Of a DNA stretch of 18,365 nt, positions 1 through 2,672 are shown piece by piece (within the stretch, counting starts at the first letter, position 1; the number at the start of each line of letters is the position of its first letter). Origin of the DNA: Bacteroidales bacterium (lineage in GTDB: Bacteria; Bacteroidota; Bacteroidia; Bacteroidales; UBA12077). The stretch is from the NCBI GenBank assembly GCA_028282585.1, contig JANQHR010000170.1, positions 1 through 18,365 of the forward strand, in the 5' to 3' direction. A program made the position numbers and the translations under genes. The notes beneath the pieces were generated by a model. That model ran no database searches. It was not told the origin of the DNA and worked only from the letters and a program-made list of their open reading frames with translations.

Positions 1-37
1 ACGCCATATGTTCAACTGGCAAATAATTGAAACTTCT

Positions 38-77
38 TAGAAATTCTATAATTCATAAAATAATTATAGAATTTCTA
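38..77. repeat. Perfect 16-bp AT-rich inverted repeat with an 8-nt spacer
   Basis: TAGAAATTCTATAATT (38-53) and AATTATAGAATTTCTA (62-77) are exact reverse complements. Function unknown (operator or terminator-like). Confidence 0.75.
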
Positions 78-100
78 TAAAATAAATTTGGTTTTATCAT

Positions 101-233
101 AGATATCGGTCCCGGCTTAGTAAATGTGCGGGTTTTCGCCTTGTTTCACTATCCGCCGTTACTAGAAACTAAAGATAACCAAAATTGTCACAATACCACT
201 ACACCCCGCATTTTTTCTGAAGCCGTGTTATGG
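101..233 (-). other. attC-like recombination site (133 bp)
   Basis: The minus strand reads CCATAAC-a-CGGCTT[C]AGAAAAAATGCGGG ... CCCGCACATTTACTAAGCCG-ggacc-GATATCT. The arms 113-132 and 205-225 are imperfectly complementary with one unpaired C (a G on the opposite strand), like the extrahelical G of attC. The R''-like ..TAAC is at 227-233. The R' position reads GAT instead of GTT. The site lies downstream of co-oriented ORFs. Confidence 0.65.
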
Positions 234-404
234 TTTGTGCCGCCAAAAACAACCCAGTCAGTTTTGCACTTAAAATCAACGAAGTTCTAAATTGTTTTAG
301 TTTTTAGAAATAGCAAATTGCTCGTAAGAGCAAAATCAAGCTCTTTTACAATTTATTGTAAATGTGCTTGGAATAAATTTACAATTATTAATAGAATTCA
401 AAAT

Positions 405-896
405 TTAATCCAAAATAACATTATTTAAACTTTTTACTGTTTTAGATTTCTTAGAAACAATCCTTTTTAAATCAAATGTTATTACGGATATAGTGTAATG
501 TTTATTTTTATTCAAATTGATTTTTTCTATGTATGATGCTAAATCAGAATGATATTCATCTAAATCAATCACTAACTTATGATTATCAAAAGGTATCAGT
601 TTAATAGATTTCTTTATCACTTCAATTGTAGTAGAATTATATCTCCAAAACAAAAATTTGTTAAAAGTTATAATATTTAAACCTTTAATATGTATGTCAT
701 GTGATCTAGGATTAATAACGTGAATATACATCAAATTATTCGAAACTTCTCCTTTCTCTGTTTCTCCATAAATCTTCTTTGGTTGAAAATTTATTCGAAT
801 GGTCTTGAAGTAATCAATAAGTTTTATAACAGCAAGTATAGTTGATAAAAATGCACCCCAAATTGCTAGAATTGTAGTTATCATATTGTTTTCCAA
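405..896 (-). CDS. Hypothetical protein with an N-terminal transmembrane helix (cassette ORF3)
   Basis: 163-aa ORF with a TTG start and an alternative ATG at 884. Hydrophobic ITTILAIWGAFLSTILAVIKLI is followed by a soluble basic domain. No family recognised. Confidence 0.7.
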   Translation of the reverse strand: MENNMITTILAIWGAFLSTILAVIKLIDYFKTIRINFQPKKIYGETEKGEVSNNLMYIHVINPRSHDIHIKGLNIITFNKFLFWRYNSTTIEVIKKSIKLIPFDNHKLVIDLDEYHSDLASYIEKINLNKNKHYTISVITFDLKRIVSKKSKTVKSLNNVILD

Positions 897-977
897 TTTC
901 TGAGTTTCATTTATAAGTTAATTAATAACATTTGCTTTAATGTCATTTTTTGAAAATTGAATATTTAAACATGAAGA

Positions 978-1310
978 TTATGAAAATCTACGTTTTAAAA
1001 TATCTTCCATAACGTCATATGATTGTTTTGTAAAAGTGTAATACCTACTTCCAATCCAACAACTAATTTGAACTTCTGAAACTATCCACAAATTATTATC
1101 TTCATCATTAAAAGTACTCTTACCATTTGAAGTACTGTGATGTTTCCACTTTTTTTCAGAAAAATCAAATACACCAGAAATAGTAATTTTACTTCTTTTA
1201 ACTTCTAAAGATACGTTTCCTAATTCTCCCATTTCAGAAGTTTCAGTATCAGTATATTCAGCGATACAATCATATCTTTTTCCGTAATAAGGGCATCTTT
1301 TTTTAAACAT
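978..1310 (-). CDS. Hypothetical protein (cassette ORF2)
   Basis: 110-aa ORF whose start overlaps the end of the upstream ORF by 8 nt, suggesting translational coupling. It looks beta-strand rich. No family recognised. Confidence 0.6.
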   Translation of the reverse strand: MFKKRCPYYGKRYDCIAEYTDTETSEMGELGNVSLEVKRSKITISGVFDFSEKKWKHHSTSNGKSTFNDEDNNLWIVSEVQISCWIGSRYYTFTKQSYDVMEDILKRRFS

Positions 1311-1656
1311 AAAATAAGTATCTAAATATGAAAAATAATGTTAAAATATCCACAAAAATAATAAACCTAACAGCTTTTGTTATACTAAAGTGTCTATACA
1401 AGATTTTATTAATTAAAAAGCTAATTGGTATAGTTAGAATAAACAATGCTATTATTATCAATGGAAAATACCACTTTATCAAAACGAACGAACCAATTAA
1501 TATTACTGGTAAGAGAAAGTAAGTTGCACGTAAAACGTAATTCCCATTTAGTAGTGGTCCACGTTGCATATCCCTACAAAAAGCATGTAAGAAATTTAGT
1601 GAAATATTAAGTAGAATTACTAAAAGATAAAAATATAAATGAACACCAAATAACAT
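1303..1656 (-). CDS. Hypothetical small integral membrane protein (cassette ORF1)
   Basis: 117-aa ORF with 3-4 hydrophobic segments separated by short basic loops. Confidence 0.6.
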   Translation of the reverse strand: MLFGVHLYFYLLVILLNISLNFLHAFCRDMQRGPLLNGNYVLRATYFLLPVILIGSFVLIKWYFPLIIIALFILTIPISFLINKILYRHFSITKAVRFIIFVDILTLFFIFRYLFYV

Positions 1657-1766
1657 AGTTTTTAATCTTTACAGTATCTTAAAATTAATTAATAACAGCA
1701 TCCTTAATCTCATAATTATCATATTAAAAATTGACAATCGAATTTAACAAATATTCGTATCAGTAA

Positions 1767-1774
1767 CAAATTTA
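1767..1774 (-). promoter_or_regulatory. Candidate Bacteroidota housekeeping promoter -7 box inside the cassette leader
   Basis: The minus strand reads TAAATTTG, matching TAnnTTTG, about 110 nt upstream of the 1656 start. A TTTG lies 15 nt further upstream (1790-1793), which is shorter than the typical spacing. Confidence 0.35.
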
Positions 1775-2051
1775 AACTCTTTTGCGTAGCAAATGTGTTT
1801 AAATTGAAATCCCAATTTTGCGAAGCAAAAAAGCGCGTTGGAAAAACTAAAACAATTTTCTATCATACCTACCAAACCAATCTCGTTAAATTCAGTATCA
1901 AAAAGCACTAATAATATATATTTTCACTGTCAAACAGCAAAATAACCAGGCTAAACGAAAAACCTGTCAGAATACTACGGAATTTCTATTAACAAAAACT
2001 GACTTACAAAGAGCAGAACTGCTCTATTTCTGAATTTTTTAGCGGCATTAA

Positions 2052-2106
2052 GCATAACTAGTTGTTAGATGGACAAAAATTCCATCTAATTGTATATAGA
2101 CGGACA
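2052..2106 (-). other. attI-like or target core site with adjacent repeated motifs
   Basis: The minus strand reads ATCTAAC-aacta-GTTATGC, i.e. RYYYAAC, a 5-nt spacer and a GTT core. Next to it are a perfect 9-bp inverted repeat TTAGATGGA/TCCATCTAA (2065-2073/2081-2089) and a direct repeat TAGAYGGACA (2066-2075, 2097-2106). Confidence 0.5.
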
Positions 2107-2249
2107 TGTTGAAAACGCCTGTAGCTCACCAATAATAAATAGTTGAGTCGTTTATGCAAAAAATAGAAAATATCCATCTTTCTAATTATAAAATTATGAT
2201 TTATTAATCAATTTCAAAATCCAAACTAAACCAAAAATTAACCTTTAAT

Positions 2250-2672
2250 TTACTTTACCTTTTTCGTTATTGGATGTTCATCTTTTAACTGCAGCAGATC
2301 CCATAAATTTCCGTATAAATCTTTAAATACGGCTACCGTCCCATAATCGGCTTCTTTAGGTTCTCTTACAAATTCAATGCCTTTGGAAAGCATTTCCTTA
2401 TAATCTCTCCAAAAATCGTCTGTATTCAGGAAAAGGAACACCCTGCCCCCGGCCTGGTTTCCTACAAATTCTTCCTGTTCGGGCTTTGAGGCCCTTGCCA
2501 GCAAAATGGTTGTTCCTGAAGAACCCGGAGGTGATACCACCACCCAGCGTTTATCCTGCTCGGGCTGGTACGTGTCCTCAATTAATTCAAAGTTTAGTTT
2601 TTGAGTATAAAATTCTATGGCTTCGTCGTAATCCCTTACTACTAAAGCGATGTGTACTATGGTTTGTTTCAA
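2250..2672 (-). CDS. VOC/glyoxalase-bleomycin resistance family protein
   Basis: HIALVVRDYDEAIEFY, RWVVV and YGTVAVFKDLYGNLWDL are typical VOC motifs. TTG start. Confidence 0.92.
   Translation of the reverse strand: MKQTIVHIALVVRDYDEAIEFYTQKLNFELIEDTYQPEQDKRWVVVSPPGSSGTTILLARASKPEQEEFVGNQAGGRVFLFLNTDDFWRDYKEMLSKGIEFVREPKEADYGTVAVFKDLYGNLWDLLQLKDEHPITKKVK

Follow-up and report, generated by a model that had tools for sequence, protein, structure and literature searches.

A probable mobile cassette of an integron-like system of Bacteroidota at an attI copy without an integrase gene, cut off by an insertion sequence

The accessible part of the IntegronFinder 2.0 paper gives one complete integron in Bacteroidetes, in Salinibacter only (PMC9024848), a review counts Bacteroidota among the phyla with integrons (PMC8618304), and a preprint from 2024 implies that none have been found there (10.1101/2024.07.02.601686). 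Of the systems described, the one that comes closest is rAID-1 of gut Bacteroidales, in which, going by the available sections of its two papers, a XerD-like recombinase gene at the 5' end is followed by co-oriented genes of low GC content with intergenic repeats "reminiscent of integrons" (10.1101/471110; PMC12247911). In those sections the clusters are defined by recombinase identity and GC content, requiring an identity of 44% or more between the 5' recombinase and the reference protein of B. fragilis (10.1101/471110), the wording is "predicted recombinase" and "intergenic motifs", and the text, motif logos aside, gives no crossover point, site structure or attI (10.1101/471110; PMC12247911). 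Our literature search, which was largely without subscription journals, found no crossover, site structure or attI reported for arrays of Bacteroidota. The locus described here is located at the start of contig C34 (JANQHR010000170.1) of a Bacteroidales bacterium of the lineage UBA12077 (GCA_028282585.1; genome G000, 173 contigs), of which the first 18,365 bases were analysed (the window; position 1 is the contig end). An earlier note on this DNA had taken positions 101–2070 for a solitary integron-type cassette in a secondary site. We consider it highly probable that the locus holds a genuine mobile cassette of an integron-like system of Bacteroidota, located at a copy of attI that lacks an integrase gene, and cut off by an insertion sequence (IS) that homes to attC sites.

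The attC-like recombination site of the cassette covers 107–233 on the minus strand, with the R'' box CCATAAC at 233–227 and the crossover G at 107, and covariance model R1 scores 119.6 bits over 101–233 (E = 4.5e-28), its sole match in the window. The earlier note had proposed a search for further copies of 101–233 beside variable open reading frames (ORFs), and many are found across the genus. In a DNA search of 40 relatives two parts of the locus, approximately 103–370 and 1764–2046, proved to be repeats with many copies in 21 of the 24 other genomes of the genus, often in clusters. An iterated profile of 96–240 collected 88 copies, 31 in G000 (on 11 contigs), 39 in G008 (within 60 kb of a complete genome) and 18 in G003 (at two loci), all three being members of the genus. 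A stretch of 80 kb in G008 has 48 site matches, 46 of them full length, all on a single strand, each straight after an ORF and downstream of an integrase gene. Read in gene orientation all copies start with ...yyTAAC and end with GGACCGTTA, the length is uniform at about 131–138 nt, and directly beyond GTTA the copies show no relatedness.

That the site is real is seen from comparison among its copies, not from the folding of a single sequence. Folded alone as single-stranded DNA, the hairpin gives z = -0.70 (minus strand) and +0.12 (plus strand) and is equalled by 48 of 200 shuffles. For the structure alignment 72 distinct site copies were taken as bottom strands, and RNAalifold returned 23 pairs, with compensatory double changes in 15. 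The paired cells amount to 94.9% over the 72 copies versus 70.8% after shuffling, where none of 500 shuffles reached the observed value, and versus 37–47% with the partner slid; the covariation score is 0.589 versus 0.141 for shuffled and at most 0.127 for slid alignments. The consensus stem is made up of the R box, a bulge of 4 bases (GTCC on the bottom strand) and about 18 more pairs, while the central ~70 nt of the site are unpaired in the consensus and conserved in sequence within the genus. The family thus has the R'' (RYYYAAC) and R' (GTTRRRY) boxes on an imperfect hairpin by which attC sites of integrons are recognized, and in the window the IS has separated the TTRRRY half from the rest of the site. 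The 133-bp attC-like hairpin of the earlier note is borne out by the 88 copies and the strong covariation, but the one unpaired base described there is a bulge of 4 bases in the consensus. This conserved bulge is the only feature seen that bears on recombination of single strands with extrahelical bases, and the site would presumably be folded as a single strand when it recombines.

In integrons the first bases of a cassette (TTRRRY) complement the R'' box of its own site, and not the R'' box of the site that it abuts. The G008 and G003 arrays contain 69 consecutive site pairs, and both boxes were located in 59 of them, the remaining ten being partial or variant sites. The four variable bases after GTT are the reverse complement of the R'' box of the next site in 55/59 pairs and match the R'' box of their own site in only 6/59, and none of 10000 shuffles reached 55, the maximum being 15. 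The rule is followed perfectly by 17 of 22 consecutive pairs from nine loci in other genera. As judged from the sequences, this complementarity across cassettes places the strand exchange inside GTT, with the crossover between G and TT, and shows that what lies between the sites moves as cassettes. The cassette of the window starts with GTTATGC, which agrees at 6 of 7 bases with the complement of its own R'' box CCATAAC; together with the rule in neighbouring pairs this upholds the integron-type crossover that had been proposed for it. The first attC on contig C169 of the same genome has the R'' box GCATAAC, a 7/7 complement of GTTATGC.

With the integrases of G000, G008 and G003 as queries against contigs from one genome per species, 544 of the 604 candidate stretches encode a relative. 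The best 80 of the 544 are mostly from Bacteroidota, with few outside the phylum, and include metagenome-assembled genomes of Bacteroidales at 63–67%, and Flavobacterium, Pedobacter, Kaistella, Galbibacter, Anaerophaga and others at 36–53%. With the sequence profile of the site, copies were detected in only 4 of 80 integrase loci of other taxa, and the covariance model R1 was needed. R1 has 41 matches in 19 of 62 integrase loci, all 41 co-oriented with the integrase and 40 of them downstream of it. In an even draw of the phylum an R1 match (E <= 1e-4, with stricter filters) is present in 47 of 150 other genomes, and 29 of 89 genera are positive, that of G000 included; the integron-like gene-capture system is thus widespread in Bacteroidota. 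It could be argued that the 133-nt element is an intergenic repeat (resembling a repetitive extragenic palindrome or a miniature inverted-repeat transposable element, or a terminator) that has spread in some other way, and that the "cassettes" are ordinary genes, as within the genus the element has a conserved central sequence, and its single-sequence folding is not significant. This is very improbable, since such a repeat would not be expected to have boxes that complement each other across cassettes and not within sites, to be co-oriented in every match and linked to one recombinase family, or to diverge exactly at GTTA.

At its left end the site is interrupted. The minus strand reads GGGACCG/ATATCT at 113–101, the slash marking the boundary, and the tail after the G, which the earlier note had assigned to the target, represents the end of an IS110-family element. 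The right end of this IS fills positions 1–106 on the plus strand, the contig starting inside the element, and comprises the last codons of the transposase (1–30, plus strand, ...TPYVQLANN and stop), a hairpin (38–77) and the terminal ...TTTATCATAGATAT (93–106). Window 1–106 has 2 mismatches to C64:79–184, whereas the attC bodies next to them agree at only about 60%, and the switch is found at GGGACCG/. The plus strand of C64 opens with a reading frame that ends ...NRNTPYVQLANN and stop, and this C-terminal tail of 35 aa, for which Pfam has no match, matches ORFs of 330–351 aa in other genomes of the genus (6 of 36). All three of the full-length relatives that were scanned contain DEDD_Tnp_IS110 and Transposase_20, and the IS110 family is identified from the frameshifted copy in G046 and from relatives; the G000 assembly itself holds no more of the transposase than the last 35 aa and the first codons.

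The closest copy of the IS, in G046 (L054:380–1681), is 1302 nt long and frameshifted and ends ...TTTATCATAGATAT/CGGTCC against another attC, and the base of attC that this end (TCATAGATAT/CGGTCC) abuts is the one abutted in the window and in C64. Left ends are assembled in G000 at C64:3355–3589 and C166:1–199, both continuing into further cassettes, and the flanks of the left ends in G000 and G046 (CCTATAAC/, GTTTATAAC/ and CCGCTAAC/) are the R' boxes of the next cassettes. The right ends read ...GATAT/CGGTCC versus ...YYYAAC/GGTCC in the intact bottom strand. These flanks and junctions together indicate that the IS sits at the G/TT crossover point of attC, within one base, and the transposase is always antisense to the cassettes. 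More distant relatives of the IS end in other sequences, indicating that the targeting of attC belongs to this IS lineage. The contig breaks at window position 1 because the IS is multi-copy. In sequencing run X1 an IS contig of 1275 bases with a depth of 42.6 ends at window 99, and the cassette contig (85–2081) has a depth of 14.3, a ratio of about 3 that fits about three IS copies. The cassette had been called solitary, which is consequently an effect of the assembly, as the contig ends inside the IS, both assembled left ends lead to further cassettes and the array continues beyond the IS; nor does the description of the system as dispersed suit a genus with integrase-headed arrays of up to 46 full sites.

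The copy L054:380–1681 has 205 nt of non-coding sequence upstream of the transposase versus 76 nt downstream, which is the layout of the IS110 type; in the accessible part of PMC11187229 the long non-coding region is upstream of tnp in the IS110 type and downstream in the IS1111 type. The upstream region (L054:380–584, C64:3355–3560 and C166:1–199) forms a long stem. In its loops, inspected by eye only, GCGTTAAC/GCTCTAAC resembles the R' box on the left flank of the insertion point, and GGACCG is complementary to CGGTCC on the right flank. A guide (seek or bridge) RNA would be expected to have such segments, and the region is a candidate for one aimed at the attC core. A permissive Rfam scan of L054 and C64 gave a chance miRNA match only. 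A group II intron was also considered for the left-end element and was dropped, there being no intron match in Rfam and the transposase tail accounting for the sequence.

At the other boundary the minus strand reads ATCTAACAACTAG/TTATGC (2070–2052), which like all other letters quoted in the earlier note is present at the positions given there. The cassette/attI junction GTTATGC (2052–2058, minus strand) has its crossover between G2058 and T2057, and is followed on the same strand by an attI-type region without an integrase gene (2059–2202), including the core ATCTAAC-AACTA-G, and by the remnant of an integrase gene (2203–2224), of which nothing is left but the final codons (D F E I D) and the stop. 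Window 2045–2224 is 95.6% identical over 180 nt to C169:1845–2024, a stretch directly after the stop of an integrase gene. The homology extends from 18–22 nt inside the integrase frame to GTTATGC, with unrelated sequence beyond, and the junction AACTAG/TTA is found about 145 nt past the integrase stop in both C169 and G008. On this homology and the G008 junction the right boundary is a second attI platform that has lost its integrase gene, adjoining a glyoxalase-family gene (2250–2672). An attI next to intI that takes up the first cassette, as required of an integron, is present in C169 and G008, and the window copy has the intI remnant only. A perfect inverted repeat of 9 bp (TTAGATGGA-N7-TCCATCTAA) at 2065–2089, 6 nt from the crossover G, is found in both attI copies and is a candidate protein-binding site.

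These two boundaries bear on the earlier proposal that a solitary cassette had entered a G/AT (GWT) secondary site in ordinary chromosomal DNA. Although the R' box in the window is GATATCT instead of GTTRRRY, no integrase gene is in the window, and another site of the genome (C77:4616) also ends GATATAA, the proposal is hardly credible, since the bases past the G are a conserved IS110-family end that abuts the same attC base in C64 and G046, and AACTAG/TTA at the other boundary is a conserved attI-type junction. With the ATATCT tail being an IS end, the empty site AACTAG/ATATCTATG that had been predicted should not exist. A different alternative is a mis-join in the assembly, the cassette truly being first after the C169 integrase and the C169 cassette belonging to the attI on the glyoxalase side. 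In run X1, where 95% of the sampled words of window 1–2400 are present, 2052–2198 is a single contig of double depth (26.5), which differs from the window at 2093, 2116 and 2124 and has two alternatives bordering each side, which speaks in favour of such an error. The two attI flanks have depths of 13.7 and 13.8, which fits two loci in one genome. Along their length the two copies in the assembly disagree at 8 of 180 positions, suggesting two versions that are tied to their own flanks, and we hold a mis-join to be distinctly unlikely.

The statement of the earlier note that no integrase lies nearby was correct, the window having none and the sole IntI-like gene of the genome being on contig C169. 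A six-frame search with an integron-integrase model gave one strong candidate each in G000, G008 and G003, and each heads its array and is co-oriented with the cassettes. The G000 integrase (C169:2004–3134, 376 aa), which has no other close copy in the genome, just passes the model NF040815 ("site-specific tyrosine recombinase/integron integrase") with 221 bits at a cut-off of 220, and fails TIGR02249 with 214 bits at a cut-off of 265, where it matches in two stretches that leave model positions 179–237 unmatched. Against IntI4 (2a3v) its residues 99–270 align to 5–176 and 293–370 to 242–319, with 22 residues opposite the 65 of IntI4 residues 177–241. The predicted structure (model m0a59335293ff, 36 relatives, mean pLDDT 84.7) has only a short loop at the position of the IntI insert, and its best fold matches are XerA (5hxy) and then IntI4 (2a3v). 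In the available text of 10.1101/2022.02.06.479319 an IntI-specific additional domain around patch III is taken as defining for integron integrases, and by this criterion of the field the protein, which is XerA/IntI-like and lacks the domain, is not an IntI. It also has an N-terminal extension of about 95 aa, of which residues 1–62 are predicted to form a small domain of a beta-sheet plus helix (pLDDT 76–94) with a conserved W and F, covered by no Pfam family. In the manner of the arm-binding domains of other integrases, this predicted domain may contact additional sites in attI or in the conserved central part of attC. The G003 integrase (L047:3918–5105) is 40–43% identical to that of G000 (L035:2004–3134) despite the alike attC sites, which suggests cassette exchange or integrase replacement within the genus.

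An enzyme of this type might move the same cassettes by recombination at a double-stranded core, as in Xer/dif, the stem then reflecting a cruciform or the structure of a transcript. The IntI insert, the part that reads extrahelical bases, is absent, the best matches are to XerA, and the attI core resembles two inverted 7-bp boxes around a 5-bp spacer, all of which would agree with such a mechanism. It does not lead one to expect an imperfect stem of 25 bp with a conserved asymmetric bulge of 4 bases that is kept by compensatory change, nor that the outer boxes alone are exchanged between cassettes, as they are in folded attC, and we regard it as possible though not probable.

The preferred reading is a cassette with a folded site. 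Under it, window 107–2057 on the minus strand would be one three-gene cassette, inserted by a tyrosine recombinase with the crossover between G and TT, the partners being the structured attC-like site of ~133 nt and an attI-type site. Later an IS110-family element would have inserted at the G/TT point of attC, splitting off the TTRRRY half and the downstream cassettes. As the attI copy is without an integrase gene, further recombination at this place would need the single C169 integrase to act in trans. Several observations weigh against this account. No relative examined carries an empty site for comparison; among those checked for an empty site or synteny the glyoxalase-family gene alone is common, and its neighbours map to other contigs of G000. 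No excision joint or circle was found in the contigs of four runs, contigs being known to drop rare forms; those of X1 on window 1–2600 have no joint across 107–2058, which is uninformative on excision, and the other runs gave three short joints with sides of at most 32 bases, from relatives. The start of the cassette matches its own R'' box at 6/7 and not 7/7 bases, and the action of the integrase on these sites is suggested by linkage. The pairing of the cassette with the glyoxalase flank and not the integrase flank rests on the assembler of the genome, 2052–2198 being the one double-depth contig in X1. A third IS junction in X1 is without the last 7 bases of the IS (TAGATAT), for which no explanation was found.

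At this third junction, at window 99, one contig has the IS end ...TTTATCA fused to an attC that is one base off C64:2321–2455, which is intact in the assembled genome; the junction may be a variant within the community.

The cassette has three ORFs, all on the minus strand. ORF 1 (1303–1656, 117 aa) is very hydrophobic and probably a small membrane protein, ORF 2 (978–1310, 110 aa) is an orphan, and ORF 3 (405–896, 163 aa) is an orphan with a hydrophobic stretch at the N-terminus. None of them matches a family in Pfam, NCBIfam or PADLOC, and among 5.8 billion proteins searched the products of 163 and 110 aa match only themselves. The GC content across the three ORFs is 0.22–0.28, against 0.30–0.41 in the adjacent genes. 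An Rfam scan of the window at gathering thresholds gave 0 matches and a tRNA scan of the window found none.

Upstream of the ORFs is a highly conserved non-coding 5' leader of ~290 nt (1767–2057, minus strand), with two hairpins with TTCG loops, which has many copies in the genus at 72–95% identity and opens a subset of the cassettes. In an alignment of eight copies (the others being L030:10921–11215, L030:12678–12966, L029:7695–7987, L032:10863–11153, L033:8341–8636, L025:1458–1745 and L028:1484–1781) divergence sets in just ahead of the differing ORFs. Most copies end in a GC-rich hairpin and a T-rich run, and the window copy is partly deleted there. Over the eight copies 3 of 49 predicted pairs covary, no Rfam match was found for the leader, and a permissive Rfam scan of L030 was also empty; the leader could be a promoter or leader RNA or a small RNA. 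The ORFs are followed by a conserved 3' trailer of ~135 nt (234–370, minus strand), which is found in a subset of the genus cassettes. Relatives match 103–370 as one block (80% in contig C27 of G003, 76% in G008), and in G008 cassettes with the 5' leader have the trailer ahead of attC. Trailer, attC and leader make up a conserved junction module of ~560 nt around varied cargo. In the sediment run X2 a contig from a relative joins 335 to 1815, the trailer running straight to the leader, which looks as though the module exists without cargo; one side of this joint is only 23 bases and it is weak.

The array of G008 (C1:1395001–1475000; L046, L029–L031) is about 70 kb long, has 46 full sites and is headed by the integrase. 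Its cargo includes Vsr with a C5 methylase and a GHKL ATPase, HNH with FtsK-gamma, MarR with DUF169, a beta-lactamase-family protein, TonB_C proteins, DUF6985, Bflower and TPR proteins. Two identical copies of an IS3-type element are present too, along with at least 5 near-identical copies of one cassette.

Cassette boundaries, crossover position, site structure and attI can be read directly in arrays of Bacteroidota. A wider reading, on which we are evenly divided, is that Bacteroidota have an integron lineage of their own across the phylum, with folded sites of ~133 nt, crossover between G and TT and a XerA-like enzyme that never gained the I2 insert, the N-terminal domain of which may read the sites; the IS110-family element would be a parasite with a guide RNA, and attI copies without an integrase gene would be docking sites served in trans. 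The I2 insert is regarded as the key innovation of integron integrases, and recombination of folded sites without it, if true, would bear on the origin of single-strand recombination in integrases (PMC7790495). It would also offer a tractable second system. The IS aimed at the crossover point would be a natural example of the targeting of a structured recombination site by a guide RNA, and its homing to attC explains why such arrays are fragmented in assemblies.

Like a CALIN (attC sites in a cluster that has no integrase), as described in the accessible part of PMC9024848, the locus has a cassette without an integrase nearby. A CALIN has at least 2 attC sites, whereas the window has one R1 site with the contig ending 106 nt beyond it, and unlike in a CALIN a copy of attI and an intI remnant are present, so the locus is a decapitated platform and not a stray cluster. 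The IS resembles ISKpn4 and ISPst6, the "IS1111-attC group" of the IS1111 family, which according to the available part of PMC11187229 target one end of attC sites, in having a DEDD transposase and in inserting in one orientation at one end of attC, and differs from them in its IS110-type layout and in a target site of the Bacteroidota type. To rAID-1 the system is closest, and by analogy it likely belongs there, the arrays of G008 and G003 having at least 2 co-oriented downstream genes of low GC content with repetitive intergenic motifs; the GC content of 0.22–0.28 in the window cassette is within the rAID-1 limit of 41%. The cargo of rAID-1 is orphan immunity genes. Here the cargo is orphan ORFs that are not recognizable as immunity genes; the window ORFs match nothing, and in G008 DUF6985 and Bflower are found among many unrelated families. 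With classical and sedentary chromosomal integrons the system shares the unit of an ORF and a structured site, the RYYYAAC and GTTRRRY boxes, the crossover between G and TT, an attI by the integrase gene, long arrays of similar, genus-specific sites and orphan cargo of low GC content. In contrast to them the recombinase is without the IntI-specific insert, scores too low for TIGR02249, points in the direction of the cassettes and bears an additional domain at its N-terminus, and the sites, of about 131–138 nt, have a 4-base bulge replacing the usual spacer layout. In function the system is an integron, but the integrase criterion leaves it outside the class.

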